Origin: an uncultured Planctomycetota bacterium
Lineage (GTDB): Bacteria > Planctomycetota > Planctomycetia > Isosphaerales > Isosphaeraceae
NCBI GenBank assembly: GCA_963845755.1
Contig: CAWJTV010000009.1
Coordinates: 312,409-376,408, forward strand
DNA: 64,000 nt
Direction: 5' to 3'
Part shown: piece after piece, positions 20,526 through 53,057 of the stretch
Layout: each line of letters starts with the position of its first letter
Numbering within the stretch: the first letter of the stretch is position 1
The notes under the pieces: model-generated
What the model was told of the DNA's origin: nothing
The model's database searches: none
Seen by the model: the letters and a program-made list of their open reading frames with translations, nothing else
Program-made: the position numbers and the translations under genes

Positions 20526-20773
20526 CGAATACTTTCCTCATGATGAGACATCGTTGCCACGTGACGAACTCCTCCGCTCATTCAACCTTCTCCCAACTCG
20601 AAGCAATCGTGCGCGTGGGGCCAGGGAATCCCCACAAAACGACACTGGCACCAAACTGGCGCGGCGGTCCTCGACATTCTGGAGCACCCCCACGCCCTCT
20701 CGTCTATTGCCGTATCAAGTTCTCCGGCCGCGGGACCACGAAGAGTGATTCCTGTCACCGCGGAATGCCGCGA

Positions 20774-21226: not shown

Positions 21227-21329
21227 GGTCTGGTCCCTTCTCGACAAATGGAAGCGAAAAAAGGCGGCCGCGGTTGTCGTGGACCGGCTTGGCGGTCCAC
21301 TGCCCGTCACAAGGTACGCAAGGATCCCC

Positions 21330-22388: not shown

Positions 22389-22545
22389 CAAGAGCTCCTT
22401 CGGGGTGTTATTGTGCCTCTCTTCGAGGCTCTCGTCGCTTTCACTCTTCCTAAGCGTGACAACCAGTCATCGGGCATGGTCCGGTCGGCCGCTCCGCCGC
22501 ACTCTCCCGGTTGTCCTAACGCGGCCTTCGGCTGCAACCCAATCG

Positions 22546-22745: not shown

Positions 22746-23365
22746 ATGAACGACGAACGAACAACCGCCGTGGTCCAGCGCTACCTTGACGAGCTGGCGG
22801 GGGATTCACCCGCCGAGCCGATCGTCCGGGCAATGATGGACCGGGCCGTCCGCCGGCTGCACCTGCTCTGCGCCAGGCTGCTGTTCCGAAGTTATCCGCG
22901 CCTGACGGCCCCCCCCTTGAACTTGCAGGTCGAACGAATTGCTCGGCGCCGTCGCGGAGCGGTTGCTCAAGGCGCGTGCGCGAAGTCCGCCCTGGGACCG
23001 TGCGACAATTGTTCGCCCTGGCCGACCAGCACATGCGCTGGGAGCTCAATGACCTGGCCCGCCGCTTAGATGATCAGCCGGCCGCCGTGGAGCTGTATGA
23101 GGCGCTCGTGCCGTCACCGGCCAGTAGCGGTTCCGGGCTCACCCCGGAAGGCCGCCGCATGCTCGAGGCGATCGGCGACCTGCCGGAGGACGAGCGCGAG
23201 GCGTTCAGCCTGGTACGGATCCAGGGGCTGACGCAGGTCGAGGCCGCGGAGGTGCTGGGCGTATCGATCAAGACGGTGCAGCGGCGCGTCAATCGTGCCT
23301 TGCTGACTCTGGAGGAGGAGTTGGACGACCTCCGGCCGGCCGGTGAGCCACCGCGTCCACGGTAG
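22746..23365 (+). CDS. ECF sigma-70 factor (frameshifts near 22935-22975)
   Basis: 'TTAVVQRYLDEL.GDSPAEPIVR', 'FALADQHMRWELNDLARR', region-4 HTH 'GLTQVEAAEVLGVSIKTVQRR'. Confidence 0.85.
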
Positions 23366-27801: not shown

Positions 27802-28408
27802 CGGTTGGCTCGCCGCGGTGTTCGTCATCGGTGGGTCAACTCCCCAGACATCCATCAGTAAATGCCGGCAAAAATGGATTGGTAGTGCAGATTACCCTCC
27901 GGGTTTCATTGCCGGCGACGATCTCAGACCGGTCCTCGGCACTCTCGATATGCGAGACCTGCAAAGCGTGCACGATGCATATGTGTGGCCTCTCTTGGTC
28001 AATGCGTGCTGCTATAGATGCTTGCCTGATGCCCGCGAGGAGGCACTCGAACCGGTCCTCGGCGCTCATGCTCTACAGTTTTCGGCCTCGAATTCTCGTG
28101 TGGAATATATGGAACACGTGGAGCATGGAGACCCATCAGGCGGTGTCGGTCGCCGGTCGGGTCCCTCATACTTTGCACATGCGCGTCTATACTTCGCACA
28201 CTCGAAAGCGTGCAAAGTATGCAAAGTATGTGAGGTCCGTACGGGGACCGTCCGTCGATGGAACCGTGCTAGCATCTCTGCTGGTCGCAGGCCATTGACG
28301 AGTGGCCCGAATCGGTCGTTGGCGCGCATGTGCCGCATTCTTGCCCTCCATGGAACTCGATTGTTGTGACAATCTTGCGGGCGGGATATGTCGCGGAGGC
28401 GCACCCCC

Positions 28409-29474
28409 TCAGGGAGCCCCGTGCTCCGCGAGGATCCGCCGGACCTCGCCGATGACGGCGTGATGGTCCTGGCAGAGGTGGCCGGACGAGACGAGCGACT
28501 CGGACTCCACCCCATCGAGATGGGCACTCTCGTACGGGACCAGGCCGTCGCTCCCGCCGACTGCGGGCGGGTCGCGCCGGTCGGCGATGATGGAATGGGC
28601 CTTGATCGTCGGCGCGAGTCCGAGCTCATCCAGGCCCATGAGGAACGGCGATCTCCACTCCAGCTCGTCGATGCTGGTGGGCAGCCCCTTGCGGAAGCGC
28701 TCGGTGAAGAAGTCCGCGCCGTTGCGGGCCAGGAGCCGGCCGTGCGACGCCCGGAGGGGATCGGGCAGGCGGACGAGCCGCGAGCCCAGGTGCCCCAGCC
28801 CGCCCCGATCCACGCGGCTGCCCCGGTGCGGCGTGGCGATGAACACGACGCGGCGGATCTCCTGCCGGGGCTTGTAGATCAGCGCGGAGCGGAACAGGTC
28901 GCAATCGGCCGGGTCGCCCGCGAGGTCTGCGGCGGGACGATCGCTCATGAGCCGCCACAGCCGTGGCCCGCTATCCTGGACCATCATCTTGCTCAACAGG
29001 CCGCCCATGCTGTGGCCGACGAGGACCATCCGGTCGAAGGCCGCATCCGAGCGATCCGGGTCGAACTTCCGCCGCACTTCATCGAGGTAGTGACGAAGCA
29101 GCGCGGCCGAATAGGGGAGCGGATCGCCCGTCGAATAGCCGAAGGTCCAGAACTGATACCGGGCGCGGAGGGTCGCATCGTCCTCCAGGTCCTGGATCAT
29201 CCGGGCCCAAGACCACGGGCTCGACCACAGGCCGTGGATCAGGACCACGGGGATCCGGCCGCCGCCGGTAGGGCCGGAGGAGCGAGAGCCCCGTCGGCTC
29301 GAACCGAAAGAGACCCGCAACGTCGGTATCCGCCTTCGTCGGTGCGGAGCCCGGCGCCTCGCGCGAGGACTCGACCTTCGACGGCGCCTGGGCCCGGACC
29401 GACGTCGCCGCGATGAACAAGGCCGCGACCGCGGCCGTTGATGCCCGTACCATGATGATCTCCTCTCGTGTCAT
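28409..29474 (-). CDS. Secreted alpha/beta hydrolase (lipase/esterase-like), frameshift near 29300
   Basis: Signal peptide 'MVRASTAAVAALFIAATSVRA', 'VVLIHGLW', GHSMGG, 'ATPHRGS', 'DGLVPY', 'GHLCQ'. Confidence 0.83.
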
Positions 29475-29477
29475 TCA

Positions 29478-31088
29478 TCAGGTGTAGCCCGACCCGGGCG
29501 GCGCCCGCAATCCCCGCGCGGCCTGAGCGAGCAGGATGGCGACCACCAGGCCGATGCCGAGCATCATCAGGCTGAGGAACCGTAGGCCGCTGCGGAAACC
29601 GTGGGCGACGCTCTCGAGCGTTACGAAGCCGCCGAGGACACGGCTCGTCTCCTGCTGGAGCGCGGCCCCGCTCAGTCCCCGCTGCTGGAAGTAGTCGGCG
29701 ACCCGAGCCGTGGCGTGTTCGACCGCCGGTCGGTTCTCGCGGAGGTTGTGGCGATAGACGTCGAGCGCCCGGTCGGACCAGGCTTTCACCATCGTCGCCG
29801 TCGCGTTTGGGATCGTGTAGATCGGAATCAGCAATCCGACCAGGCCCAGCGCGACCCCGTAAAGCATGTCCCTCGGATCCAGCCCCTCGACCTCGTCGGT
29901 GAGGAAGACCGGGGGGATCAGGCCCAGGAATGCTCCCCAGCAGGCCAGCATGACCGCCACGTTCTCCTTGGCGGTGAAGTTATCGATCGACGACAGCCAC
30001 CACACACAGGCCGCCGTCCCCACGAACCCCACGACCAGCCAGGCGTGCCGTAACGATCGTCGATGAAACCAGGTCGTGAGGAACGTGGTCACCGCCATCG
30101 CCGCCGAGGTCGGCACCATCAGCCAACCCGAGGTGATCCTCGGGTAGGCGCGCAGCTCGGTGCAATAGAGGCCGACGATCGAGAGGACAGCAACCATGTG
30201 CAGGAGCAGCAACCCGCGGGTTATCAGGCAGAGGACGTAGACGCGCGATCGTATGAGACGGTTCAGGTGCTCGTCCCGACTCAGACCCGACCCCAGCCAG
30301 ACGGCCAGGGCAACCGGCAAGACCAGACAGAGTGCAACCGTAGTGACGAATGCGTTCGACGACCAACCGCCCCACTTGCGGTACCAGGAGAACGTGAACT
30401 CGATGGCCACGATCCAGCCCACGAAGACGGTGACGGCCAGCCAGTCGATTGGCACGCGAATCGGCTTCGCCGGACGGTCGGGACGGAAGAAGCACCAGAC
30501 CAGGACCGCTGCGATCAACCCGATCGGCACATAGGCCCAGTACATCCACCGCCAGGACAAATACACGTCCAGATAAGCGTTGATCAGCGGTGTACAATAC
30601 CTCGTCGAGTAGGCGAACACACCATAGAAGCCGATGGCCACCAGGAGTGCGCGGTCGAATTGCTGATAGAGCGTGGCTCGACCGACTGCCATCGCCATCA
30701 ACTTGCCAAAGCCCTCGACGAGCCGCCCGAAGGCCAGGCTGTATAGCCCGGTCGCCGCGCCACAGAGCACGTTGCCTACACAGAACACCAACAGACCCGC
30801 GACGAGCGTGTAGCGCTTCCCAAACCGAACCGAGAACAACACCCCCGAGAACAGGCCATAGATGAATCCGAAGATGTAGGCGACGTTGACCCAGATCATG
30901 TCGTAGCTGTCCACCTCGACGCCGAGGCGGACAGCATCGTCGGTGATGGCAGTCTGGACGAGGGTCTGGTAGGGCGTGAAGAGGACGAAGAGCATCGCAA
31001 GGGCAGCCAGCCAGTGCCTGCGTTCAAGCAGGAGCGGCGTCGGCGCTGTGGCGGTGTGTCTTGGGATCGATGCTGCAAGCGTCGTCAT
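29478..31088 (-). CDS. MFS transporter, EmrB/DHA2-like
   Basis: Many hydrophobic helices; 'RFGKRY', 'GRLVEGFG', 'WRWMYW..VPIG', and a long loop before the last helix. Confidence 0.85.
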   Translation of the reverse strand: MTTLAASIPRHTATAPTPLLLERRHWLAALAMLFVLFTPYQTLVQTAITDDAVRLGVEVDSYDMIWVNVAYIFGFIYGLFSGVLFSVRFGKRYTLVAGLLVFCVGNVLCGAATGLYSLAFGRLVEGFGKLMAMAVGRATLYQQFDRALLVAIGFYGVFAYSTRYCTPLINAYLDVYLSWRWMYWAYVPIGLIAAVLVWCFFRPDRPAKPIRVPIDWLAVTVFVGWIVAIEFTFSWYRKWGGWSSNAFVTTVALCLVLPVALAVWLGSGLSRDEHLNRLIRSRVYVLCLITRGLLLLHMVAVLSIVGLYCTELRAYPRITSGWLMVPTSAAMAVTTFLTTWFHRRSLRHAWLVVGFVGTAACVWWLSSIDNFTAKENVAVMLACWGAFLGLIPPVFLTDEVEGLDPRDMLYGVALGLVGLLIPIYTIPNATATMVKAWSDRALDVYRHNLRENRPAVEHATARVADYFQQRGLSGAALQQETSRVLGGFVTLESVAHGFRSGLRFLSLMMLGIGLVVAILLAQAARGLRAPPGSGYT

Positions 31089-32533
31089 GGTGTCGCCCCC
31101 GCCGATTCGGCGGCGTCCCCATCTTGGACTGGCTCCCCGCGGGACTCGGGGGCGTTGTATCGCCGCTCGAGGTCTTCCATCGCGCGCGCCGCCTCCGCGG
31201 CCCAGGCGGCATCACCGGGACCGTGAGCGATGGCCACCGTCGCCATCAGCCCGGCACGGAGCCGCGGCCAGCGGTCGTCGCGCTCGATCTGGATCCGCAC
31301 CGGCACGCGCTGGACCACGCGGGTGAACTCACCGGAAACGACATTACGGGGCATGAGCGCGAACTGGGCCCCCGTCGACTTGTTGACCCAGACGACCCGC
31401 CCCCGAAACGGCTCGGCGAAGGCGTAGAGCTGGATACGGACCGCGTTGCCCGGCTCAACGCCCGGTAGGCGGTCTTCCTCCAGGTTGGCCTCGACGTAGA
31501 GTAAGTCCGGGTTGTACATGCTCAGCACGGGAGAGCCCGCCGAGGCGAAGTCGCCCAGGTGGCGGTACCGCTTGACCACCACTCCGGGGAACGGGGCCCG
31601 GACCCTGGTGTACGCCAGGTCGCTCTCGGCGGCCTCGAGCACCCGCCGGGCCTGCTCGACGGACTGCTCCTTGACCTTGACCAGGAGCTCGATCTCGCGG
31701 ACCTGATCGTAGCCGACCTCCGCGAGGCTGATGCCCTTGGCCGCCTTCTGCTCCGACTTCTGCGCGGCGTCCAGCGCGCTGCGCGCGACGTCAATCTGGG
31801 TTCGGGAGGCCAGGGCCTTGGCCAGCCGAGCCTCGGAGAGGTCCACCTGCGCGGAGGCCGAGTCGCGGGACTGCGTGACTTGCTGCTGCTGTCGAACCGG
31901 GCTGGCACCCTGCTGCTCGAGCCGGGTGAAGCGTGCGTACTCCAGCTCGGCCAGCGTGAGGGAGGCGCGGGCCGCCTTCACTCCGGCGCGGGCCTCGTCG
32001 ATCCCCTTGTCCACGTCGTCCCCGGTCAGCGTGAGCGACTTCTCGGCCTTCACCCGGTCGGAGACGGCGGCGGCGGAGGTCCGCCGGGCGATCTCGATCT
32101 GGATCGGTACCTCCTTCCGGACGCGGTCCAGGTCGGCACGCTGGCGGCTCAGTTCGGCGAGCGCGGAGTCGAGCTGGGCTCGCGCCACGTTGACCTTGTC
32201 GCGGTACGGGATCGGGTCGATCTCCGCCACGACCTGGCCCTGGGCGACGCGGTCGTTCTCGTCGGCCAGGAGGCGGATGATCCGGCCGGACACCAGTTGC
32301 GGGGCGACGTTGACGATGTGGGCCTCGACGAAGGCGTCGTCGGTGATCGAGTGGCTCCGGCGGTAGTCGACCCATGGGATACCGAACATCAACCCGAAAG
32401 CAACCAGCCCAACGACCGCGGCCCCAGCGAGGAGACGGCCAGGACGGAGCGCATGCCGGGGACGGGCGGGCGGAGTCGCCGGGGTCTGGGCCGGGCTGTT
32501 CGAAGGTGCCTGGGCTGACTGGATGGCGCTCAT
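31085..32533 (-). CDS. HlyD/EmrA-family membrane fusion protein
   Basis: 'TDDAFVEAH', lipoyl half-motifs, coiled coil, 'TGAQFALMP...GEFTRVVQRVPVRI'. The stop overlaps the MFS start. Confidence 0.9.
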   Translation of the reverse strand: MSAIQSAQAPSNSPAQTPATPPARPRHALRPGRLLAGAAVVGLVAFGLMFGIPWVDYRRSHSITDDAFVEAHIVNVAPQLVSGRIIRLLADENDRVAQGQVVAEIDPIPYRDKVNVARAQLDSALAELSRQRADLDRVRKEVPIQIEIARRTSAAAVSDRVKAEKSLTLTGDDVDKGIDEARAGVKAARASLTLAELEYARFTRLEQQGASPVRQQQQVTQSRDSASAQVDLSEARLAKALASRTQIDVARSALDAAQKSEQKAAKGISLAEVGYDQVREIELLVKVKEQSVEQARRVLEAAESDLAYTRVRAPFPGVVVKRYRHLGDFASAGSPVLSMYNPDLLYVEANLEEDRLPGVEPGNAVRIQLYAFAEPFRGRVVWVNKSTGAQFALMPRNVVSGEFTRVVQRVPVRIQIERDDRWPRLRAGLMATVAIAHGPGDAAWAAEAARAMEDLERRYNAPESRGEPVQDGDAAESAGATP

Positions 32534-32565
32534 GGAGTCCTCCACATGCTTCGACTTCGTCCCGG

Positions 32566-34266
32566 CTAGTGATGTTCGGGTGCCTGAGGCATCGGTGGCT
32601 GGCCAACTCCCATGGCATAACCCAGGCGATCCATCGCGATCAAGTAGCCATACCGGGCGTTCAGGTAATTCTGCTGGGCACGGGTCAGCGAGGCCTGCGC
32701 ATCGGCGATCTCGGTGGGGGCGGCCGCACCCTCGCGGAGCCGAAGTTGCACGAGCCGGTAATTCTCGCTCGCCTGGTCGACCGCCGGTCGGGCATCGTCG
32801 ATTCCGACCCAGGCCGTGACGGCATTCCGGTAGGCCTCGTTGACCTGGAACGCGATATTATCCACGATCGACTCGGCCTGGGCCATGGCCTGGCGTACCA
32901 TCGAGTCCGCTACGCGGGTCGCGGCGATCTTCCGACCGCCCTCGAAGAGCGTCCACTCGAGCCGGATGAACCCCAGCCGCAAATCGGCGTGGCCGTTCAA
33001 TTCTTGCTGCTGGAAGTTCAGCAGGGTCCCATCCGCAACGACCTTGGGCGCGAACTGGGCTCGGGCGATGCGGCCCCCTTGCACGGCGACCTCGACCGTG
33101 CGCTGAACGACGTAGAACTCGCGGCGCTGCCGGACGGCTGTCTGCAGGCAATCGGCGAGCGAGGAGGCCATGGGCGGGATCTCGGTCGGCTCGACGACAC
33201 GAAGCGGCTGATTGCACTTGAGCCCGATCGCCAGGTTCAAGCCCGCCAGGGCCACGAACTCCGCCTCGGTGGCGGCGTGGAATGCCTGGCGGAACTCGGC
33301 CATCTGCACCTCGGCCCGCAGGACGACCTCGCGCTCGATGACGCCCTCGCGCTGGCGCTTGCGGGCATCCCCTAGCTCCTCCTCGGCGCGACGGAGGGCG
33401 TCCTGGGCCGTCCGCCGCAGGGCCTGGCTCCGGAGGACGTTGTAGTACGCGACCGCGACCTCGTTAGCCACCGTCTGGTGGGCGCGCTCCGTCTGGAGCC
33501 AGGCGATGTCGCCCGCCAGCTTCGCCTGCTCGTATAGGCCCAGCCGACGGCCGAAGTCGAGGAGCAGCCACTGGACCTTGAGCTCGGCCAGCTCGAAGGT
33601 CGTCCCCAGGTTGAGGCCGATGGGCACGGCTCCAATGCCGGGTAGGAAGTTGAATCCCGGGAGACCCTTCGCCAGATGGATGGGCTGGCCCCCCACTCCG
33701 AGGCCGAATCCCCCTGCGTCGTAATTGGCCGCGACGGTCGGCAGGAACGTCGAGAACGCGATCTGCCGCTGCCCCTGGGCCTGGGCGATGCTCTCGACCT
33801 GGGCACGCAACCGTGGTTGAGAGCGGAACGCCAGATCGATCGCCTCGGGGAGCGTCAGTGGCTTGCCGCTCGCGGCGATCGCGTCGAGCGTGGCCTCGTC
33901 GGAATCACTCGGAAGCGACGTCGCTGGCGTTCGCGTCGCAGCAGCATCAGGGCGACGTGGCGGGCCTTCGATCGCCGCTGGTAGCCGGCCGGATCGATCG
34001 TCATCCGCGAAGGCCTCGTTCGTTTGGCCAGGTTGCGATGCGGCGGCGAGCCGCACTCTCGTATCGCTCGTCGCCGGCTTGCGGGTCTTCACCTCTGGTG
34101 GTTTGGACGACCGACTGGCACCGACTTCGTCCGACACAACTCGTGGAGCCAGACGATCCTGGAGATCGGACTTCGAAAAAGCACAGCCCATCGTGGAGAC
34201 GAGCGCGATCAGCAAGGACTGGCGGCGGATCGACCGGAAGGCGTGATCGGCGTCTGGTCGAGGCAT
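32566..34266 (-). CDS. TolC-family outer membrane efflux lipoprotein
   Basis: Lipobox-like 'LLIALVSTMGC', 'LTLPEAIDLA', 'LLDFGR', 'VAVAYYNVL', 'WTLFEGG'. The start codon is inferred. Confidence 0.87.
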   Translation of the reverse strand: MPRPDADHAFRSIRRQSLLIALVSTMGCAFSKSDLQDRLAPRVVSDEVGASRSSKPPEVKTRKPATSDTRVRLAAASQPGQTNEAFADDDRSGRLPAAIEGPPRRPDAAATRTPATSLPSDSDEATLDAIAASGKPLTLPEAIDLAFRSQPRLRAQVESIAQAQGQRQIAFSTFLPTVAANYDAGGFGLGVGGQPIHLAKGLPGFNFLPGIGAVPIGLNLGTTFELAELKVQWLLLDFGRRLGLYEQAKLAGDIAWLQTERAHQTVANEVAVAYYNVLRSQALRRTAQDALRRAEEELGDARKRQREGVIEREVVLRAEVQMAEFRQAFHAATEAEFVALAGLNLAIGLKCNQPLRVVEPTEIPPMASSLADCLQTAVRQRREFYVVQRTVEVAVQGGRIARAQFAPKVVADGTLLNFQQQELNGHADLRLGFIRLEWTLFEGGRKIAATRVADSMVRQAMAQAESIVDNIAFQVNEAYRNAVTAWVGIDDARPAVDQASENYRLVQLRLREGAAAPTEIADAQASLTRAQQNYLNARYGYLIAMDRLGYAMGVGQPPMPQAPEHH

Positions 34267-34828
34267 CGAACGACTGCTCCAGCATGCATGATCGTGACTC
34301 CAGTCCCTATCCGCGCTTACGGGATGTATCGGATCTGATGGCTCCGATTCTGAGAGGAATTGTACGATCTCCGGGGCCGTTACGCACCGGATGTAGCCGC
34401 CGAGGGTCGGTCTCAACGGGGGGAGCACGAAGGCGAAGACCGGTGGGCCGATGAGAACTTGGACCATGGATGAACTCGTCGCGAGGGTCGGTCTCATTTT
34501 GGCCAAGTGGCACCCCCACCAGGGGGTCCCTGGACTGGCGCGATTCTTCAGGTAATTCATCGTGCAGAACCGGTGGGCTTCCTCGTCGTGAGACAGGATC
34601 GTCGCACCGGAGCCGGCGGCCAGGGAGCTTCGGACGCGCTAGCCGCCCCGACGTCGGCCGATACGCCGGCCGGCGCGAGGATCGCGTCCGGGTCGGTCGC
34701 AACGGCAGAGCTCGCGTGATCGATATACAGGAGCTCCGCATCGAGGATGCGGCGCGCCCGCGCGGTCGATTTCGAGCCGGCGGACCGGAATCCGGTCGGT
34801 GGGCAGTCAGAGCGCATCGCGTCTGGCA

Positions 34829-37225
34829 TCATGCTGTGACCTCGGTGAATGTGTGGACGCTCGGGTCCTCGATCTTCGCCGGGCGGGAGACGGCAAGGTG
34901 CCGCTCCCCGGGCCGGAGTCGATCGATCAGGACGACGAAGGACGGGACCAGGATCGGCCGGACGAGGAACGTGTCGAGCAGGACGCCCAGCCCCAGCGCG
35001 AATCCCAGCTCGCGGAGCGACGTCAAGCTTCCCGTCAGCATCGATCCGAACGTCCCGGCCATGATCAGGCCGCACGAGCTGATGATGCCGCCGGTGCGAG
35101 CGACGGCCCTGCGCGTCCCCTCTACGACCCCGCACTTTCGCTCTTCCTCGAGCACGCGGGCCATGAGCAGGATGTTGAAGTCCGCGCCCACGGCCACCAG
35201 GATGACGAACAGGAAGAAGCCCACGGTCCAGTCGAGCCCCTCCCAGGGCCCGGGGCCCCGATGCAGGGCGTGGAATAACACATCGGTCAGTCCCAATGTG
35301 GCCAGGTAGCCCAGCACCACCGTGGCGATGAGATAGAGGCTGATAAAGGGTCGACGAAGCAACATGACCAGGATGGTGTACACCCCGAGCGTCACGAGTA
35401 CGTACATGCGGCGCTGATCGCCGGTGGTCACGCGCTTCAAGTCACTGACCTCCGACGTTGAGCCCGCGAGGCCGATCGCGATGGCCCCATGCAGGGGTTG
35501 ACTCGCCGCGGTGGCGCGTCGGAGCGTCGCGCCGACGTCTTGCAGGGTCTGGAAGCTCGATTCCGAGAAGGGATCGGTCTCGAAGACGATCTCGAGGCGA
35601 GCGATGTGATTGAGATCGGCCGCTCGCCTCGGCGTGGTGGCGACGTATCGGGCCTCGGCGGCCCTGCGCACGGCCCGGTCGGCCAGCCGCGTGAACACGC
35701 CCTCGCCACTGGCAGATCCCTGGGGCTTGCCCACGGGCCGCGTCAAGGAGCGGACCTCGGCGACGCCGCCCAGCGCGGCCAGCCTGCGGCTGATCTCCTC
35801 CATCGCCCCCCTGGCCTGCAGCGACCGGAAATCCAACGTGGGATGCTCGATCAGGGCCACGGTCGGGCTCAACTCGCCGACGGCGAAATAGGGACGGACC
35901 GCATCGGCACCGAGCACGCTCGGCCGATCCGGGTCGAGGTCGACGAGCTGGCTGTAGTTCGGCCGCGTGCGGGCACCGACCACGGCCAGCGGAGCCAGGA
36001 TCGCCAGACAGGCCGCGCAGATCTTCAAGGGGTGATCGACCACCAGGTCCGCAACTCCGACCCAGAAGCCCGCCGGGGTCAGCGGCTCCCGGAGTGCGGC
36101 CTCGCGATACCCACCATCCTCGTGCCGGGGGTCCCGGGACGGCCAGAAGAGGGCGCTGCCGAGGCAGGCCAACATCGCGGGTGCCGCCGTCAGGGCCGCG
36201 GCCAGTGCCACGGCGAGGCTTAACGCGATCGTCGGTCCAGTGGACCGGATCGTTTCGAAGCGCGAGAAGCCGAGCATCCCCAGCCCGACGATCACCGTGC
36301 CGGCACTGGCGACCACCGCCGGCCCCACCTGACCGATGGCTTCGCGGATCGCCTCGACCGGCGGTCTCCCTCGCCCCAGCTCCTCCCGGTACCGCGACGC
36401 CAGGAAGAGACAGTAATCGGTCCCCGCGCCGAACAAGATGACGACGATGAAGAGCTGCGTGATGTCGATCACCTGAAGTCCCAGGCCCGGTAGCCCCGCA
36501 AGCAGCGCGATCAATCTGAGCGAGGCGAACACCGAGAAGGCGATCGTCACCAGGGGCACCATCGCCAGCAGCACGGAGCGGTAGACTACCAGCAGGATCA
36601 CGATCACGAGGGCGATCGTCGCGTTCGTCGTGGCCCCGATGCTTTCGTCGGTCGCCGCGTGGATGTCACGCCCCACGGCCGCCGAGCCCGTAATCGCCCG
36701 ACCGAGCCCGGGTGGAGGCGCGGGCGCCCTTGTGTTGGCCCACTCCAGAATTCGATCGACCGCGAGTTGCGTCCTCCGTGAGAGGTACCCGCTGTTCAGC
36801 GAGACGATCGACAACACCGCCTGATCGGCACCCTCGGCGCGGGTACCGATTAACCGAGGTCCGATCACCGGCGAGCGGTGCGTGTCGATCTGCTTTACCC
36901 CGAGTTCCGGATCCTCGTGGGCGAACCGGGAGAGCCCCGAGGCCTGGCCGTCCACGAAGCGAAAGTCGTCAGCAGTCAAGCGGCCATCCTCGCGGCGGTA
37001 GAGCAGCACGAGATCGGAGCTCGAGGCCTCCTGGGGGAAGCCTCGCTCCAAAAGCTCTCGCCCGATCACGCTCGGACAATCCGCAGGGAAGAGCCCGAGA
37101 TCGTCGTCCTTGCTGATCCGGTCCCACGGCGGAGCGAGATAGTGCAATCCCGCGGCCAGCAGGAGCCATGCCAGGACGACGGCCCGAGGGTGGCGGACCA
37201 CGAAACTCGATACAATCCGGAACAT
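34829..37225 (-). CDS. MMPL-family (RND) transporter
   Basis: Two MMPL repeats; 'FGAGTDYCLF', 'VGADFNILL', 'TGGIISSCGLIMAGTF', 'LLDTFLVR'. Confidence 0.9.
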   Translation of the reverse strand: MFRIVSSFVVRHPRAVVLAWLLLAAGLHYLAPPWDRISKDDDLGLFPADCPSVIGRELLERGFPQEASSSDLVLLYRREDGRLTADDFRFVDGQASGLSRFAHEDPELGVKQIDTHRSPVIGPRLIGTRAEGADQAVLSIVSLNSGYLSRRTQLAVDRILEWANTRAPAPPPGLGRAITGSAAVGRDIHAATDESIGATTNATIALVIVILLVVYRSVLLAMVPLVTIAFSVFASLRLIALLAGLPGLGLQVIDITQLFIVVILFGAGTDYCLFLASRYREELGRGRPPVEAIREAIGQVGPAVVASAGTVIVGLGMLGFSRFETIRSTGPTIALSLAVALAAALTAAPAMLACLGSALFWPSRDPRHEDGGYREAALREPLTPAGFWVGVADLVVDHPLKICAACLAILAPLAVVGARTRPNYSQLVDLDPDRPSVLGADAVRPYFAVGELSPTVALIEHPTLDFRSLQARGAMEEISRRLAALGGVAEVRSLTRPVGKPQGSASGEGVFTRLADRAVRRAAEARYVATTPRRAADLNHIARLEIVFETDPFSESSFQTLQDVGATLRRATAASQPLHGAIAIGLAGSTSEVSDLKRVTTGDQRRMYVLVTLGVYTILVMLLRRPFISLYLIATVVLGYLATLGLTDVLFHALHRGPGPWEGLDWTVGFFLFVILVAVGADFNILLMARVLEEERKCGVVEGTRRAVARTGGIISSCGLIMAGTFGSMLTGSLTSLRELGFALGLGVLLDTFLVRPILVPSFVVLIDRLRPGERHLAVSRPAKIEDPSVHTFTEVTA

Positions 37226-37335
37226 GAAATCAGTCCCACGGTTCCCGGTTGCGATTGCATGAGCAGAACAATGATGAGGCTCTGCCGCCGGTGGGGATGG
37301 CCCACCCTCTTGCTCTCGGTCGGTCGCGGCTCGAC

Positions 37336-37821
37336 CTAGGCCGCGGAGCTCCCGGTCGAAACGGCCAGGGGCCTCGCGTTCTCATGGGAGTGGCGGCGAG
37401 CCGGCGGCTGGGCATCGGTCCTGGCGGCACTGCTCCCCATCAGCTTCCACCTGACGTAGCTCGTCACGAGGCCGACGGTGAACAGGTCGTCGATTCGTTC
37501 GAGATGCCGATCGCGCTCCAGTTCCCTCCAATCGGCGTAGGGCATCTGCTCATGCAGCGCGGCCAGGCCGTCGTCGGTCAGTCGACCTTCGCTGATGAAC
37601 GCCGAATCTCCCCGGAGGAATGCCTCCGGGAACAGCTCGTCCTGGTTGATCTTGATCATGAATTCGCGCTCGAGGCGGAACACGATGTCCAGGAAGTCGA
37701 TGGACTCCGCCCCCAGGTCGCCTTGCAGGGTGGCGGAGGGCTTGATGTCTTCTTCCTCGACCCCCAGGGCGTGCACGAGCACTCTCGTGATCTTCGCGTC
37801 AATCTCATTCGAGGTCGGCAT
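37336..37821 (-). CDS. Atypical (insert-containing) acyl carrier protein, second copy
   Basis: 'DLGAESIDFLDIVFRLEREF'; paralog of 20774..21226. Confidence 0.83.
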   Translation of the reverse strand: MPTSNEIDAKITRVLVHALGVEEEDIKPSATLQGDLGAESIDFLDIVFRLEREFMIKINQDELFPEAFLRGDSAFISEGRLTDDGLAALHEQMPYADWRELERDRHLERIDDLFTVGLVTSYVRWKLMGSSAARTDAQPPARRHSHENARPLAVSTGSSAA

Positions 37822-37871
37822 GGTCTGGTCCTTTCGCGGGAAGTTGCGGATGAGAAACAACGGAGACGGAT

Positions 37872-40453
37872 TCACTTCAGCCCGATCTCGCCAGCCGACT
37901 TGCTCAGGATCGCGTCGGCGGTCTCGCCGATCAGGGCCCACTCGGCGCAGGTCTCCCCGAGCGCCTGGAGGAATCGATCCACCTGGGCGTCGCTCACGAT
38001 CAGGGGAGGTTGGACCCGGAGCACCCGCGGGTTCGAGCGGGCCACCTGGGTGTAGATCGCGTGCTCGTGGAGCAAGTTCGACTGGACGTACAGCGCCGGG
38101 ATCGTGCGGAGAAGGTCCTCGTAACCGGGCACCAACCACCAGCTCGCCCCCGACGAGTCGAAACCCTTGAAGTTGGTGAGCAGCCCCGGGGATAGCTCGT
38201 GGAATTCCACACCCAGCATCATTCCATGGCCTCGGATCTCGCGGATGATCGGGCAGCAGCGGGCGATCGACTCGAGGCCCTCGTGGAGCTGGATCCCGCA
38301 GCGGGCGGCGTTCTCCAGCGTCGGGGTATCACGCAGGACCCGGAGCGTCGCCAGGCCCGTGGCGCAGGCCAGGCTGCCGCCCGAGAACGTGCTCGAATGC
38401 AGCGCGAACGTCTGGTACGAGCCGTACGCCTTCATCCAGATGTCGCGGCGGGCGATCATGGCCCCGAGGGGCATCAGCCCGCCGCCCAGCGACTTGGCCA
38501 GGGCGAGGATGTCGGGCTCGACCCCGTCGCTCTCGACGGCGAACAGCGGCCCGGTCCTCCCCAGGCCGGTCTGCACCTCGTCGGCGATGAAGAGCGTGCC
38601 AGCCTCGCGACAGAGCCGGTGGGCCTCGGCCAGATAGCCCGGCGGCGGCGTGACCATCCCGCCTTCTCCCTGGATCGGCTCGACCACGAACGCGGCGTGC
38701 CGGCGCGTCGCCAGGGCCAGCTCGAGGGCCCTCGTGTCGCCATAGGGGACCGCCTGGCATTCGGGGACCATCGGACCGAACGGGCCCTGATAGGTCCGGT
38801 TGCCGGTGACCGAGAGGGCCCCGAAGGTCTTGCCGTGGAACGAGCCCCGACACGACAGCAAGCCGCTACGGCCGGTCGCCGCCCGCGCCAGCTTCAGGGC
38901 GGCTTCGATCGACTCCGCCCCGCTGTTGGTGAAGAAGACGATCTCCAGGCCGCGCGGGGTGATGGCCACCAGTTGCTCGGCCAGCGCCGCCGCCAGAGGA
39001 TTGACCGAGCCCGGCGAGAATCCGGGCGTCCGCTGGCTCAACGCCGAGGCGACCGACGCCGCCACGTCGGGGTGATTGTGCCCCAGGTTGAGCGAGCCGA
39101 AGCCCGCCACGAAGTCGAGGTAGGCGCGCCCCGACTCGTCAAACAGCTCCGCCCCCTCGCCCCGGACGAACGTGCGGGCCAGCCCGCTCGGGCCGCCCAG
39201 GCCGATCAGGACGGGATTGATGTGCCTGCCGTACCGCTCGGCCGCGTGCTCGGCCAGGTCGGCGACGCTGATAGGCTCCTCATCGGCCCGCTCGAGAGCG
39301 GCCTGGTCACCGTATCGGCGTGGTGGTCGCGATCGCATGTGGCGAGTCCTCGAGAGCACCTTGAGGAACTGAGATCGGGCCTCCGGGCTCAGCGCCTGGC
39401 CGCACGCCAGCGCCTCCGAGAACACGAACCCGTGCGCTCGGCGAGCCGGCCGATCTCGCGGACGCGGTCGAGCGAGAGCTCCCGCCCGATCGAGAATGAG
39501 TCGGCGCGGTTCTCGAGCGCCAGGACCATCGTCTCGCCCAGGCAGGAGGGTACGATGCCGTGATAGAACCGGAGGAAGAACGAGTCGCGGGGCATCGACG
39601 CGGGCACGCGAGCATAGCCGGCGGAGAGGATCAGGACATCATCGCGGCTCGGCGCTGCACGGCGGATATCGCTGGGGACACCCACGTCGAGCACCAGGCA
39701 GCCCGGGCGGAGCCAGCCTGGGTCGATGCAATCGCCCGACGACGTGGCCGTTACGACGATCGAGGCCTCGGCCAGGGCCCTGGGGAGATCGACCTCCAGC
39801 CGCGCACCCAGCCGGTTGGCCAGGTGGGTCGCCCGAGGCGACGTCCGCCGTGCCCCCAGAACCAGGCGCCGGCACCGCGGCGCCAGCACAGTGGCCACGG
39901 CCGTCGCGATGCTGCCCGGGATCCCCACGACCGCGATCTCCTCGTCGGCCAGGTCGATCCCCAGGTCCTCACAGTAATGCTCGAGATTTCGCACGGTCGC
40001 GTACACGGTCAGGCTGTTGCCTGTTGTCACGGCGATCGGCTGGCGTTCGGCCAGAAACGTGCCGTGGTTGCCGACAATCCCGGTCATCGAACCGAGCCCG
40101 ACGATGCGGGCCCCCCAGCCGATGGCGTCCTCGACGGCTTGCTCCATGAGCTCGAGCGCCCGGCCGGAGTCGCCCAGGATTCCCCGCGCATCCATCGGGA
40201 TCTCGTAGAGTCGCCCTTCGGCCCTGGCGCCGGCCGCTGAGACCAGCCTGTCGAACGTGTCGGCGATCCGCGGTGCCAAAGACCGTCCGTCCGACATCGG
40301 CCGGTGACGGGGCCCGAATGCGGCATGTGCCTCGGCGCAGAACTCGAGCAGGTCGGCCCGGCCCCAGGTCCGCCGCAACCGGCCATCCCGGTCCAGCGCC
40401 ATCAGATCCGTGGTCTGCTCGGAGAGCGGGTGGATCAGGAAGGCGAATCGCAT
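37872..40453 (-). CDS. PigE-like fusion: acyl-ACP (thioester) reductase plus class III aminotransferase, frameshift near 39430
   Basis: N-terminal 'MRFAFLIHP', 'IVGLGSMTGIVG', 'VTTGNSLT', 'VVGIPGSIA', 'PSCLGETM'. C-terminal 'YLDFVAGFGSLNLGHN', 'NSGAE', 'EPIQGEGG', 'IADEVQTGLGRTG', 'AKSLGGG'. About 860 codons in total. Confidence 0.82.
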
Positions 40454-40602
40454 CCCCGGCCCGTCCGCTTGCGGGCATTTCCGTGCATGATTTAGCCCCT
40501 CAACAGAGCCCAGGAAATCCGGTGAGGCGGCGCCCTCAGCGCGCCACCTCGATCAAGACCTGAGAGTTCATCGAGCACTTCGCCTTTCTTGCCGAGTTGC
40601 GG

Positions 40603-40698
40603 TTACCGTCGGTCCACCGAGCACGGCTCGGCGCCACACAGGTCGCGGGCGTATTCGTGGATCGTGCGATCGCTGGAGAATTGGCCGGAGTGCGCCAC
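40603..40698 (-). pseudogene. glgP: Glycogen/starch phosphorylase C-terminal remnant
   Basis: Minus strand reads VAHSGQFSSDRTIHEYARDLCGAEPCSVDRR*; FSSDRTI.EY is the phosphorylase C-terminal signature. Confidence 0.7.
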
Positions 40699-40744
40699 GG
40701 TGGAGCGAGGAAATTAAGGGTGTTCAGCTTGCGGAACCCGTGGC

Positions 40745-41525
40745 GCTGCGCCGTAATCTTTGCAAGTGTGCTCATGCGGTCAAGGCTGCGCCGGCCGCCG
40801 GGGTCGAGGCCGGGTCGCAAGCCTTGTCGTCGAATTCCAGGAAGCGGGCGAACCGCCGCTGTCTGTGGCGCGCGTACCACGCCTGGCGGGCCTTATCACG
40901 CCTCCGCCGCGCTCGCGTCCCATCCACGGTAAACCTCCTTCTGTTGAGAGTCCCTGATCTTTGCTGCTGGGAGCCATGGTCCGAAAATAAAGGTGGCCCG
41001 CCCGGCGCTCGGGCGGACCCGAGGCGACGCGGGCGCGAGCCTCTTGTCGCGTTTCACCGAACATGACAAAGCGGAGAGGACAACCCGGGGCGTCCCTTCC
41101 GGGAAACCGTAGATGCCCCGTTGCTTCACCGGGGCCGGTCAGGCGAAGGTGTGGGGACTTTGTTCTCGGACCGGCCGGGATTCAACCGAACGAGGTCGTG
41201 ACCGCGCCCGGCGGTTCGAATCGGCCCGGCGCCCGGAGGCCCTGGCGATCCTTTCGATCGCCCTTTTCCCCTGCTGATTAACTGAGCGTGCCCACTGGAC
41301 ACCTTCGGGCGGGAAAGGCTCGGACTCGCGCCCGCGATCACGACCCATCCCATCATTGCGGATCGGCGCGAGATCTCCGGCGCCTGGCCTCACCGCGGCG
41401 GACCCACGGACTGAGTCGGTCCCCCGTCGCTCACGATCGAGCCGCTGTCCGAGAATTGCCTACGTGAAGACCGGGACCTGCCCGGCGGCTGCGCCTGCAC
41501 CGGTCGGGGGACCGAATCCCAGAAT
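40745..41525 (-). repeat. Copy 2 of the ~0.8-kb inverted duplication
   Basis: Reverse complement aligns with ~9390..10200. Confidence 0.8.
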
Positions 41526-41719
41526 GCGCGTTGCGGCCTCCTAGGTCGACTCCGCCTCGGGGAACAAGTTGTCGATGCGGCCTGGATCGACTCTAGTCTT
41601 TGCCAGCGAAGGCGCACCTCGGCGAGGAGTTCGAGATAATCGCGGCACACCTCGTCGGGGCTGCACCGCGATTCGAGGACCTCTTCGAACAGTTGCTGTA
41701 TCCGCGGATCCGCGGCCAT
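41390..41719 (-). pseudogene. Internally deleted kinase-WD40 gene (kinase leader fused to the WD40 protein tail)
   Basis: Starts MAADPRIQQLFEEVLES..SPDEVC..YLELLAEVR and ends 'FWDSVPRPVQAQPP...VGPPR', matching the tail of the WD40 remnant that ends at 9531. Confidence 0.72.
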
Positions 41720-41770
41720 CGCTCTTGCCTTCCCGCCTCGTCGAGTCTGCCGGTCCCCGTCGGTCCGTCC

Positions 41771-42367
41771 CTACCTCGGGCGCAGATCGTCCAGTTGCTC
41801 CGCCAGGAGCAGCAGAGCCCGATTCAACCGCCTTTGCACGGTCTTGGTCGAGACGCCCAGGACTCCGGAGGCCTCGTTATGGGACAATCCCTGAATCCGG
41901 ACCAGGCTGAAGATCTCCCGCTCCTCTTCCGGCAGGTTCTCGATGGCCTGTAAGATGCGGCGGCCGTCCGAGCTCAGCTCGGAGACGCTGCTCTCTGGCG
42001 CCGGCACCACGCTCCCGTGCAGCTCGACCGCGGAAGGCTGTTCGTCCAGGCGGCGGGCCAGGTCATTGAGCTCCCAGCGCATGTGCTGGTTGGCCAGCGC
42101 GAAGAATTCGCGCACGCTCCGCGGACGGGCCTCACGCATGGCTTTGAGTAACCGCTCCACCACGGCGCCGAGCAGATCGTCAGGCTCCAGGTTGAGTGGG
42201 GGCTGCATCAAACGTGGGTAGCCCCGGTACAGAAGGTTCGCAGAGACCAGTCGCAGTCGACGCACCGATTGGTCCACGAGCGCCCGGATGATGGGCTCGG
42301 CCGGCGCATCACCGGCCAACGCGTCGAGATAGCGCTGGAGGACGGCGGTGGTCGGTTCTGCACCCAT
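41771..42367 (-). CDS. ECF sigma-70 factor (intact)
   Basis: 198-aa ORF with region 2 ('LEPDDLLGAVVERLLKA..FFALANQHMRWELNDLARR') and a region-4 HTH. Confidence 0.9.
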   Translation of the reverse strand: MGAEPTTAVLQRYLDALAGDAPAEPIIRALVDQSVRRLRLVSANLLYRGYPRLMQPPLNLEPDDLLGAVVERLLKAMREARPRSVREFFALANQHMRWELNDLARRLDEQPSAVELHGSVVPAPESSVSELSSDGRRILQAIENLPEEEREIFSLVRIQGLSHNEASGVLGVSTKTVQRRLNRALLLLAEQLDDLRPR

Positions 42368-42493
42368 GAAACGCTACTCGTCGCTACTATGAGGTGAATG
42401 TCCACCCGCCACGCTTGAGTATTGGTAGTGGTGCGCGTGCTGAGTATACCGCCTCCAGTGTCCGCCGGCCACACCCGGACGGAGATTCCAACG

Positions 42494-45400
42494 ATGGCTG
42501 GCGATCGCGACCTGCGGCACCTGCTCGAGGTCATCCTCGACACGGGAAAGAGCCCGGAGGAGGTGTGCCAGGGCGACGCCGAGTTGCTGGCCGAGGTCCG
42601 GGCTCGCCTGCAATACGTGCGCCTGCTCGAGGCCAAGCTCGACGTCCTGCTTCCCTCGTCCTCCGGCCCTGAGGCCGGCACGGCGCCACCCAGGCCGTGG
42701 ACCGCCCAACCGCCGCATCTCAGCGGGTACGAAGTGCAGGACGAGCTGGGCCGGGGCGGCATGGGTGTTGTGTACCGGGCGTGGGATCAGCGCCTCCACC
42801 GGCCGGTCGCCATCAAGATGCTGCTGGCCGGCGACTTTGCCCGACCGGACGAACGGGAACGTTTCCGGCGCGAGGCCGAGGCCGCCGCGGGCCTTCGTCA
42901 CGCCAACATCGTGCAGGTCTACCACGTCGGCGACCACGACGGGCGGCCGTACTTCGCCATGGAGTTCGTCGAAGGGGGGAGCCTCGCCGAGAAGCTCGCC
43001 GGCGCCCCCCTCGCCGCCGGCCGGGCCTCGGCGCTCATCGCCACGCTGGCTGAGGCCGTCCAGGCGGCCCACGACCGCGGGATCGTCCACCGCGACCTGA
43101 AGCCGTGCAACGTCCTCTTGACCGCTGACGGTACCCCCAAGATCGCCGACTTCGGGCTGGCCCGGCGGGTGGACGATGGGACGGGGCTCACCCAGAGCGG
43201 CACCCCGCTAGGCACGCCGAGCTACATGGCCCCCGAGCAGGCCCGGGGCCAGACGCACTCGATCGGGCCGGCCGCGGACGTCTACGCGCTGGGGGCAATC
43301 CTGTATGAGCTGCTGACCGGCCGGCCTCCCTTTCACGCGGACACATCGGCGGAGACGCTGCGGCAAGTCGTCGAACAGGAGCCGCCGCCGCCCTCGCGGT
43401 CGAACGCGAAGGTGCCACGCGACCTGGAGGTCATCTGCCTGAAGTGCCTGCGCAAGGAGCCGCACCGGCGCTATCCCAGCGCCGCCGCGCTGGCGGAGGA
43501 TCTCCGCCGCTTCGAGCGGGGCGAGGCGATCACGGCCCGCCCGACGGGCCGGCTGGAGCGGTCGGCCCGGTGGCTGCGGCGCCGGAGGGTCCAGGTAGCG
43601 GCCCTCGCGGTCGGGATGCTGCTGGGGGTCGGGCTGGTCGCCGCCGGCCTCGGGCTGAGGTCGGAACACGAGGCGGGCGTCCGCCGCGAGCGGGACCGGG
43701 CCCGCCGTGAGCAGGCCCTGGTGGCCCGGGTGGACGCCATCCACCTGGATCGCGCCACCCTCGTCGAGGGGCGGTTCAACCCCGCGGCCGAGCGGCGCTT
43801 CAACGATGCGAGGGCGGACCGGGACTACGAGTCGGCGTTCCGCGAGGCGGGGTTCGGGGCGATCGGCGAGGACCCGGCGGGTGTGGCGGCGCGGGTCGCG
43901 ACCTCGGCCGCGCGCGAGCCGTTGGTGGCCGCGCTGGGCGACTGGGCGGTCTGCGCCGCCGATGAGCGCCGCCGGGCGTGGGTCCTGGGGGTGGCGCGGA
44001 GAGCCGACCCGGACGCCTGGCGCGACCGAGCCCGAGATCCCGCGGCGTGGTCGGACCGCACCGCCCTGGCCGCGATGGCCGGGCCCGCGCCGGTGGCGGT
44101 GCAGCTCGTGCCCTTCCTGGTCGCGCTGGCGGAGCGGTTACACGACCTCGGCGGGAACGGGACCGCCTTCCTGGCGCGGGTACACAAGGAGCACCCGGAC
44201 GACTTCTGGGCCGCCTTGACCCTGGCCCGGGCGTTGCAGGAGGGCGCGGACCCCGAGGCTGCGGTCGCCCCCTACCGGGAGGCGCTGAAACTCCGGGGGG
44301 ACTCGGCCGCCGTCTACAACAACCTCGGTCTCGTCCCGTACGGAATGCGCCGCTGGGACGAGGCCATCGACGACTTCCGCAAGGCCCTGGAGATCGACCC
44401 CGACTTCGCCCCGGCCCACAACAACCTCGGCCTGGCCTTGAAGGGCGAGGGCACGTGGCCTGAAGCGATTCACCACTTTCGCGAGGCCGTCCGACTCGAC
44501 ACCGATCTGGCCCCTGCCCACTACAACCTCGGCGAAATCCGGGCCTATCAGGGCGGTCTGGACGAGGCGATCACCCACTATCGGCAGGCCCTCCGGATCG
44601 ATCCCGAGTACGCTCTGGCCGAGTACATGCTCGGCGTCGCTCTGGCCGGCAAGGGCCTACTGGACGAAGCCAACGACCGCGATCGGCGGGCCCTCCGGGA
44701 CAACCCCGCGAGTGCCAAGGCCAATGTGAAGACCCGAGGTATTGCGGTGGCCGAGGGGATCATCCACTACAAGCGAACCCTCGGGATCGACCCGAAGCTC
44801 CCGCTCTCTCTCGACGGCCTCGGCGTCACCCCGCGAGACGCGGACCGGCTGAACGAGGCGATCGGTCACTACGAGAAGGCTCTTCGGATTGAACCGGGGT
44901 TATTCCTGGCTCATGCGGCGCTGGGCCAGGCGCTGCTGGCCCTGGGGCGATTCCGCGAGGCCGAGGCCGCGACCCGCCGCTGTCTCAACCGGCTCCCCCC
45001 GGGTCATGAGCTGCGATCCAACGTCCTCGCCCAGCTCCGGCGCTGCGAGCGGCTGATCACCTTGCAGGCCCGGCTCCCCGCAGTCCTCCAGGGGAAGGAC
45101 AAGCCCGTCGATGCGGCCGAGACGCTCGAGTTCGCCGAGCTCTGCGGCCTCCTGGGGCAACCGGTCGCCGCCGCGCGCCTGTACGCCCAGGCCCTCGGTG
45201 CGTCACCGCCACAGGCCCTGGACCTCCGCTCCGACCACCGCTACCGGGCCGCCTGCGCCGCCGCGCTGGCCGGATGCGGCCGCGACGGGGACGGGGCTGG
45301 GCTCAACCAGGCGGAGCGGGCGCGGTGGCGCCAGCGGGCCCGCGAGTGGCTCCGGGCCGAGGTCACCCTCTGGACCAGGGTGCTGGACGGTGGCCCGCCT

Positions 45401-52984: not shown

Positions 52985-53057
52985 GTCTGGGCTCCTCGAG
53001 GCGGCTGAGTGCCGGGACTGCGACTCCCAGAGAACCCCCATCCTGCCGGCATGCCGC

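Follow-up and report, generated by a model that had tools for sequence, protein, structure and literature searches.

A PigE-like reductase-aminotransferase beside a TolC-EmrA-EmrB-hydrolase operon in a planctomycete genome

The window analysed here is a 64,000-nucleotide stretch of DNA from an uncultured planctomycete (G000:C9:312409-376408), the right end of which coincides with the end of contig C9 (376,408 bases). The assembly (G000) comprises 14.27 Mb in 49 contigs with 68% GC and a completeness of 87.88%. At positions 28409-40453 lies a row of seven genes, all on the minus strand according to open reading frame (ORF) calls and Pfam and NCBIfam scans, beginning with a fusion of a thioester reductase and an aminotransferase that resembles PigE of prodigiosin biosynthesis. 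A first-pass annotation made from the DNA letters had listed seven co-oriented genes with these domains, and all of them are present. In the direction of reading, they are:

37872-40453, minus strand: PigE-like thioester reductase-aminotransferase, assembled as a reductase (39389-40453) and a class III aminotransferase (37872-39425).
37336-37821, minus strand: long acyl carrier protein (ACP), 161 aa; PP-binding (PF00550) 36.1 bits against a cut-off of 20.8.
34829-37225, minus strand: MMPL-family RND transporter, 798 aa; PF03176 324 bits against a threshold of 20.5.
32566-34560, minus strand: TolC-like outer-membrane factor; OEP 141.4 bits.
31085-32545, minus strand: EmrA-like periplasmic adaptor; HlyD_3 match; TIGR00998 209.5 bits against a cut-off of 390.8.
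29478-31088, minus strand: DHA2-type MFS permease, EmrB-like; MFS_1 81.1 bits; TIGR00711 87.8 bits against a cut-off of 230.2.
28409-29474, minus strand: secreted alpha/beta hydrolase, called as 28409-29320; GHSMG elbow; Abhydrolase_6, DUF676 and PGAP1 matches.

Third-position GC content (GC3) is 0.80-0.86 across all genes of the row, which indicates coding sequence. The fusion is separated from the ACP gene by 50 nt and the ACP gene from the MMPL gene by 110 nt. The gap from MMPL to TolC is at least 268 nt and up to about 560 nt, depending on the TolC start. Spacing is then tight again: TolC to EmrA is 20 nt, EmrA and EmrB overlap by 4 nt, and EmrB to hydrolase is 3 nt once an indel is read through. 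We call the first three genes unit A and the last four unit B. The row is flanked by Ser/Thr kinase-TPR genes and an ECF sigma factor.

Judged by its sequence, the fusion is a full-length homologue of PigE, with an AAR-type reductase (AAR, acyl-ACP reductase) followed by a class III aminotransferase. Both halves match NF053554 (PigE, the prodigiosin 2-methyl-3-amylpyrrole aminotransferase), the reductase half with 232.1 bits and the aminotransferase half with 499 bits, and PDB entry 4ppm (PigE) is the best solved match for both. The reductase half scores 159 bits against 4ppm and 59.5 bits against cyanobacterial AAR (residues 105-342); the long-chain acyl-ACP reductase model TIGR04058 gives 69.8 bits over residues 142-342, under its cut-off of 449.7. 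The aminotransferase half contains Aminotran_3 (317.5 bits) and scores 357.5 bits against 4ppm versus 280 against putrescine aminotransferase. Cys304 of the reductase aligns with PigE Cys296, and the Gly-rich NAD(P) motif GIPGS aligns with PigE GYPGS; both are invariant in 4/4 aligned orthologues. The motif around the lysine that binds pyridoxal phosphate (PLP), LAKSLGGG, aligns with the PigE Lys motif. The first-pass annotation had read the enzyme as PigE-like in both halves and in domain order, rather than as an ordinary ornithine-type aminotransferase. Comparison with profile models and the structure database bears this out: both halves lie nearest PigE, and AAR is distant.

The fusion is not PigE itself, because its intact 87%-identical orthologue P0001 reaches 738.7 bits on NF053554, under the cut-off of 850, no prodiginine partner lies in the window and the PigA and PigJ models stay below their cut-offs in a search of the whole genome (416.8 versus 500 and 158.4 versus 900, both on other contigs). 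The window domain scans, in which PigD and PigB models were not searched, found no prodiginine-cluster genes. The PigA-model match is an acyl-CoA-dehydrogenase-type gene (G000:C33:480330-481472) and may belong to an unrelated pyrrole-forming pathway.

Fusions of this kind are numerous as proteins and sporadic in genomes. The reductase domain was recognised at E <= 1e-5 in 326 proteins of 621-2000 aa, out of 8000 candidates scored. Among the matches listed, 120/120 carry Aminotran_3 (749-969 aa), and many of the fused relatives are labelled Planctomycetia or Pirellulales. The fusion occurs in 5 of 41 relatives, 13 of 121 family genomes and 5 of 401 genomes in an even sample of the phylum, for which scoring covered up to five candidates per genome; G000 is included in each of the three counts. 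A metagenome scan for fusion loci returned only four, all short.

We scored the surroundings of 30 other loci with the fusion in PigE order (L010-L028, G027, L090-L093, L115-L120) by tblastn and Pfam. Many of the loci without scored neighbours lie on contigs too short to judge. The counts are:

FemAB-like GNAT (PF13480/PF04339): 11/30 loci (L011, L012, L014, L017, L021, L022, L092, L093, L115, L117, L120).
Acetyltransf_9 GNAT: 3/30 loci (L013, L019, G027).
GH3 amide synthetase: 1/30 loci (L028).
Condensation-domain protein: 1/30 loci (L017, where a GNAT is also present).
Any amide-forming neighbour: 15/30 loci (GNAT 14, GH3 1).
Long ACP directly after the fusion: 6/30 loci (L010, L090-L093, L115), all with at least 78% reductase identity.
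MMPL near the fusion: 6/30 loci (orthologous in G093, G049, G075 and G048; distant in L025 and L026).
TolC or EmrB near the fusion: 0/30 loci, including 0/18 with at least 6 kb of downstream flank.
Hydrolase homologue near the fusion: 1/30 loci (G093).

The commonest neighbour is thus a GNAT, most often FemAB-like, and the presence of an amide-forming enzyme beside the fusion in half of the loci fits an amine product. The MMPL orthologues in the four relatives G093, G049, G075 and G048 are 58-81% identical to that of the row and lie downstream of the fusion. Of the five loci where reductase identity reaches 73% and the flank is long enough, they account for four; the fifth, G067, has none. The gene partners named in the first-pass annotation were therefore genuine for ACP and MMPL, while the commonest one, the GNAT, was missed and was not found in our searches of G000. 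The gene set is conserved together only in part: ACP and MMPL recur with the fusion in the closest clade, but TolC and EmrB do not.

The FemAB-like GNATs are about 400 aa long, carry PF13480 and PF04339, have no NCBIfam match and may use acyl or aminoacyl donors. At three loci with 47-48% reductase identity (L023, L025, L026) a Peptidase_C25 gene adjoins the fusion. Squalene-hopene-cyclase-like and PNP_UDP_1 genes adjoin it as well in L023 and L025, and the MMPL gene lies upstream of it in L025 and L026. A hopanoid-related context is possible for these three.

The ACP of the row is lengthened by about 45 residues, inserted between helix II and the last helix. It falls below the cut-offs of all NCBIfam ACP equivalogs, which fits this insertion. 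Its Ser motif GAESID is invariant in 6/6 aligned copies, and the long type forms a planctomycete cluster of 3928 members. The MMPL protein scores 381.4 bits on TIGR00833, under the cut-off of 874.7, and 26-59 bits on the HpnN and MmpL3 models. Elsewhere in G000, a 66%-identical MMPL paralogue on contig C21 has no fusion or ACP in its vicinity.

The four genes of unit B make up a single, tightly coupled operon. TolC, EmrA and EmrB match Pfam OEP, HlyD_3 and MFS_1 above thresholds but stay under the NCBIfam cut-offs (for TolC, TIGR01844 gives 110.7 bits against 225.15), and we therefore assign the pump the same architecture as the known system but a distant subfamily. That system, EmrAB-TolC of Escherichia coli, is a tripartite MFS efflux pump. 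Both consist of an OEP protein, an HlyD-type adaptor and a DHA2 MFS permease in a tightly coupled operon; unit B differs in its fourth gene, the secreted hydrolase, and in the low NCBIfam scores of all three pump components. From the N-terminal reading and the GC3 profile, the real TolC start is probably near 34266, giving a lipoprotein-like N-terminus. One contig carries a 19-nt insertion variant at 34608, which indicates non-coding DNA there.

Reading through the indel at 29262 moves the hydrolase start to 29474 and gives a Sec-type signal peptide that matches the N-termini of its paralogues. The earlier description of the hydrolase as secreted is borne out in this way. Ser104, Asp258 and His281 are invariant in 4/4 paralogues. 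An AlphaFold model from a four-sequence alignment has a mean pLDDT of 38.8, and comparison with PDB sequences gave one marginal match (E 0.0096).

Unit B is conserved independently of the fusion. Orthologues of TolC (71-80%) occur in operon B of G093, G049 and G075 and those of EmrA (82-83%) in G093 and G049. EmrB has orthologues of 95% in G093 (contig C2) and 76% in G049 (C7), G075 (C16) and G048 (C56), and every one of them sits off the contig that bears the fusion of that genome. The order TolC-EmrA-EmrB is kept in 3/3 relatives whose EmrB flanks were examined (G093, G049, G075). An 82% hydrolase orthologue follows EmrB in G049; no hydrolase follows it in G093 or G075. The sigma factor upstream of the row also belongs to this comparison:

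41771-42367, minus strand: ECF sigma factor, upstream of the row; Sigma70_r4_2 and Sigma70_ECF matches.

In G049 its 80% orthologue is found with operon B instead of the fusion, about 3.4 kb upstream of TolC-EmrA-EmrB-hydrolase (tblastn, L130). In the window, unit A seems to separate operon B from its sigma factor.

Our preferred reading, to which we give a probability of about 0.6, is that two units lie side by side in this lineage. Unit A would convert acyl-ACP to a primary amine and export it, and unit B would be an independent efflux operon. In unit A, the dedicated long ACP would hand its acyl group to the active-site Cys of the reductase domain, where NAD(P)H would reduce it to an aldehyde. 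The aldehyde would pass to the PLP domain and be transaminated to a primary amine at the expense of an amino donor. The MMPL protein would then extract this hydrophobic amine from the inner membrane. In most relatives, the GNAT, GH3 or condensation enzyme beside the fusion would N-acylate the amine. The acyl-ACP may well be a fatty one, and the product of unit A is probably lipid-like. Unit B would act separately, as a translationally coupled tripartite efflux operon with a secreted Ser-Asp-His hydrolase, conserved on its own in the family.

Several observations weigh against this reading. There is no ACP-loading enzyme within the row. The long-chain alkyl nature of the substrate is our inference. 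The partner GNAT was not found in G000 (87.88% complete) by tblastn with the GNATs of relatives. One public metagenome contig (from run X1, below) spans the ACP-MMPL junction unchanged with no GNAT between, which argues that the loss is real; the amine would then be exported free or acylated elsewhere. Part of the sequencing depth at the frame break in the fusion lacks the base that restores the frame (for example 4.2/26 in X1). Finally, two observations bear on the separation of the units. No strong terminator is predicted between MMPL and TolC, so co-transcription of units A and B is possible. The closest relative, G093, has a hydrolase paralogue and a different HlyD-type exporter after MMPL, which makes a functional tie between amine module, secreted hydrolase and envelope-spanning pump possible.

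These last two points favour the strongest alternative, in which all seven genes serve one pathway: an amine lipid made in the cytoplasm would be handed on by MMPL, cross the outer membrane through TolC-EmrAB and undergo acylation or deacylation by the hydrolase in the periplasm. The gene order at the G093 locus (L115, G093:C3:39400-59399), with a reductase 83-93% identical to that of the row, speaks for it. Up to the fusion it has a CoA-transferase, an SDR and an EmrA-like remnant of 75 aa just upstream. After the fusion come ACP, GNAT, MMPL, the hydrolase paralogue, a B12 radical-SAM protein (DUF4070), a SnoaL-like protein, HlyD, two FtsX proteins and an ABC ATPase (cNMP-binding), so that MMPL is followed by a hydrolase and an HlyD-FtsX-ABC exporter. 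The shared orientation of the seven genes points the same way. So does the finding that hydrolase paralogues lie near long-ACP paralogues three times in G000. This genome has several hydrolase paralogues and four long-ACP copies, one of them by a hydrolase paralogue and an indolepyruvate decarboxylase (IPDC)-like gene in the window and one in a ketosynthase (KS)/FabA cluster on contig C34. Against a single pathway stand the absence of TolC and EmrB from all of the other fusion loci, the location of orthologous TolC-EmrA-EmrB(-hydrolase) sets on other contigs in G093, G049 and G075, and the MMPL-TolC gap of 268 to about 560 nt compared with the tight spacing inside each unit. In addition, the G093 hydrolase is nearer to another G000 paralogue (67%) than to the hydrolase of the row (57%). 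We consider a single pathway unlikely, and the claim of the first-pass annotation that the row is one seven-gene operon with two export systems is not supported by the same synteny.

A second alternative concerns the product. The substrate could be a functionalised acyl-ACP (keto-, enoyl- or short polyketide-type), and the amine would cyclise to a diffusible metabolite of the imine or pyrroline type, as with 2-methyl-3-amylpyrrole and the koreenceines, rather than form a lipid. Both PigE and KecF, which are the nearest characterised relatives, lead into cyclisations (PMC8341465, PMC6498172). The long-ACP copy in the KS/FabA cluster on C34 would suit such a product, as would the genes that precede the fusion in G093 (SDR and CoA-transferase) and in G017 (SDR). 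The row itself, however, contains no KS, no Stetter enzyme dependent on thiamine diphosphate (ThDP) and no oxidase. The window ORFs that were scanned showed no KS, adenylation or condensation domains either, in agreement with the earlier statement that no polyketide synthase or non-ribosomal peptide synthetase genes are nearby. The PigA and PigJ models are sub-cut-off in G000, and the ThDP enzymes of the window, considered as PigD-like candidates, were rejected as IPDC-like. The MMPL and N-acyltransferase partners also suit a lipid better. We regard a cyclising small molecule as a rather improbable product.

A further arrangement can be drawn in which planctomycetes of this family would make an amine lipid of the envelope. 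The fusion would make a fatty amine, MMPL would deliver it to the periplasm, the hydrolase would serve as an acyltransferase, and a pump with an HlyD-type adaptor would carry the product to the outer membrane or surface. The pump would be EmrAB-TolC here and of the ABC type in G093, and periplasmic acylation would replace cytoplasmic acylation in G000, which lacks the GNAT. MmpL3 and the Ag85 mycolyltransferases offer an analogy for MMPL delivery combined with a periplasmic acyltransferase. We regard this arrangement as speculative and doubtful.

It is also improbable that the module is decaying in this strain, with real frameshifts, a lost GNAT and no product. The genes as assembled give some cause for this suspicion: the fusion has a 1-base gap in the assembly and a further indel in an N-terminal extension, and the GNAT is missing, a loss that the X1 contig supports. 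The two fusion ORFs overlap by 37 nt and join via a -1 shift at 39436/39437, which corresponds to the 1-base gap. As read-side evidence we used Logan contigs that match the window at 95-99% identity and come from four public wetland-metagenome runs. Seven contigs, from 4/4 runs, have an additional base behind 39436, which accounts for 21.8/26, 8.26/11.9, 11.4/22 and 14.7/18.9 of the total depth. It restores residues found in orthologues P0001, P0021 and P0027, which read continuously across the junction, and the fused frame is thus intact in near-identical environmental DNA. GC3 is 0.84-0.86 to either side of the break. The run that covers the window best may come from the window's own sample, so the contig evidence at 39436 is not fully independent.

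The hydrolase changes frame at 29262, within its N-terminal region. A base is omitted there in one X1 contig (10.6/10.6 depth), while X2, at a depth of 2, does not show the omission. Both breaks suspected in the first-pass annotation are real features of the assembly. Together, the public contigs argue that both (39436 and 29262) are assembly errors or strain variants, and the break at 39436 is very probably an assembly error. Six further genes of the window appear similarly split (10170-12020, 18866-20537, 46003-48988, 49042-53131, 52749-54971 and 22746-23338), their domains running on in an overlapping second frame, so that the assembly seems to have an indel error about every 10 kb. By type, the split genes are PoxB-like, IPDC-like (twice), hybrid histidine kinase, kinase-TPR and ECF sigma genes. 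Breaks of this kind in at least five of these window genes speak for assembly error rather than decay, and G093 and G049 too have indel-split genes.

Upstream of the fusion ATG lies the extension mentioned above:

40454-40571, minus strand: possible N-terminal extension or leader of the fusion gene, out of frame in the window through a 1-nt indel.

It comprises about 48 in-frame codons, conserved in five relatives in a DNA alignment of six loci, and contains a duplicated REDGA-like motif. The window copy has lost one REDGA-like repeat (27-nt gap) in addition to the 1-nt indel. The upstream ATG at 40571 is 118 nt from the ATG at 40453, and many fusion orthologues are called at 906-915 aa versus 860 aa for P0001. 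A weak similarity upstream of the fusion genes of relatives arises because this conserved extension is read there in another frame.

Least probable by far is an ordinary ornithine, putrescine or hopanoid (HpnO-like) aminotransferase with an irrelevant N-terminal domain: the aminotransferase half does match putrescine and acetylornithine transaminase models strongly, and L023 and L025 have squalene-hopene-cyclase-like and PNP_UDP_1 genes near the fusion, but all such models are sub-cut-off (putrescine aminotransferase 327 versus 612; ArgD, TIGR00707, 310.3 versus 410.05; ornithine aminotransferase, TIGR01885, 243.5 versus 378.4), HpnO is not among the best 25 NCBIfam matches listed (no search was aimed at it), PigE is the best match for both halves, and the reductase is fused in every match listed, with the catalytic Cys kept.

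The chemistry proposed for unit A is well supported by homology to characterised enzymes and is already known from PigE, TamH, KecF and TabE/TabA. PMC8341465 describes PigE as reducing a thioester and then transaminating the aldehyde, with Cys296 as the acyl-accepting Cys, shared with AAR Cys294. PigE, from the 2-methyl-3-amylpyrrole branch of prodigiosin biosynthesis in Serratia, has the same domain order as the fusion, a similar length, and the Cys and PLP Lys in common; it differs in having prodiginine partners, where the row has ACP, MMPL and, in relatives, a GNAT. TamH/TamA of Pseudoalteromonas tunicata (tambjamine YP1) is likewise a stand-alone route from acyl-ACP through an aldehyde to a fatty amine with a dedicated carrier. 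According to PMC9594044, TamH reduces the thioester and then transaminates, making a C12 amine from acyl-ACP and not from C12-CoA. Its domain order is reversed (transaminase, then reductase), and its carrier is fused to an adenylating enzyme, whereas the ACP of the row is free with no loader nearby.

Two further systems follow the same logic. KecF of Pseudomonas koreensis (koreenceines) is likewise predicted to be a reductase-transaminase fusion and to release a chain from an ACP; unlike the enzyme of the row, it has the transaminase first, sits in a type II polyketide synthase cluster and yields a cyclising product (PMC6498172). In Streptomyces albus, TabQ, TabJ, TabE and TabA (tambjamine BE-18591) include a dedicated ACP, an acyl-ACP reductase and an omega-transaminase that together lead to a fatty amine. 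The Tab proteins are separate, and TabJ is a cytoplasmic editing thioesterase, in contrast to the signal-peptide-bearing hydrolase of the row (bioRxiv 10.1101/2025.08.11.669332). Cyanobacterial AAR (PDB 6jzu, 6jzq) has a homologous fold and Cys-thioester mechanism, with a distant match to the reductase half. Its aldehyde goes to a deformylating oxygenase, whereas that of the fusion would go to a transaminase.

Reductase-transaminase fusions have so far been characterised only within pigment and alkaloid pathways. The PigE-order form belongs to a large uncharacterised clade whose usual neighbours are N-acyltransferases, a dedicated carrier and a lipid exporter. Such surroundings suggest that this phylum, about whose envelope chemistry little is known, makes an amine-based lipid or surfactant that has not been described, and the clade also offers acid-to-amine biocatalysts of natural origin. 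As for the window, its efflux pump adjoins the pathway and is no conserved part of it. In the literature searched, neither the planctomycete fusion-ACP-GNAT-MMPL module nor its product and role is described, and the earlier remark that no planctomycete cluster of the composition of the row had been described stands in the same literature.

Scans for regulatory elements were largely negative. Rfam gave 0 matches at E <= 1 over 28000-42500, and a Sigma-70 promoter scan found 0 sites with a consensus that may not suit planctomycete promoters. The terminator scan gave no overall enrichment (7 sites versus 5.4 +/- 3.0 in shuffles); one of the hairpins lies between the upstream ECF sigma gene and the fusion:

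40995-41019, minus strand: terminator-like hairpin with a 10-pair stem, 9 GC pairs and a T-rich tail.

In the same interval, ORFs 40536-40880 and 41390-41719 are without a Pfam match, and GC3 shows no clear coding frame over 40454-41770. A degraded GNAT at 40454-41770 was ruled out by tblastn with six GNAT queries, which found no match in the window or genome.

A paralogous mini-row on the minus strand at 18866-22391 consists of a secreted hydrolase paralogue (21330-22391, 54% to the hydrolase of the row), a long-ACP paralogue (20774-21367, 61%) and an IPDC-like ThDP enzyme (18866-20537, apparently frameshifted). The pairing of a ThDP decarboxylase with a carrier protein is unusual. At 17877-18224, also on the minus strand, a 99-residue fragment is 90% identical to the C-terminus of the hydrolase of the row and was apparently left behind when that gene took part in a recent duplication or recombination. 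Elsewhere on the contig (L100, G000:C9:223001-243000), DDE transposases flank a second EmrA-MFS-OEP set. A hydrolase paralogue (61%) accompanies it on the other strand, and some 5 kb upstream lies a truncated copy of the long ACP. At the contig end, 58353-64000 on the plus strand holds a beta-oxidation-like row of acyl-CoA dehydrogenase, enoyl-CoA hydratase, family III CoA-transferase and 3-hydroxyacyl-CoA dehydrogenase genes.

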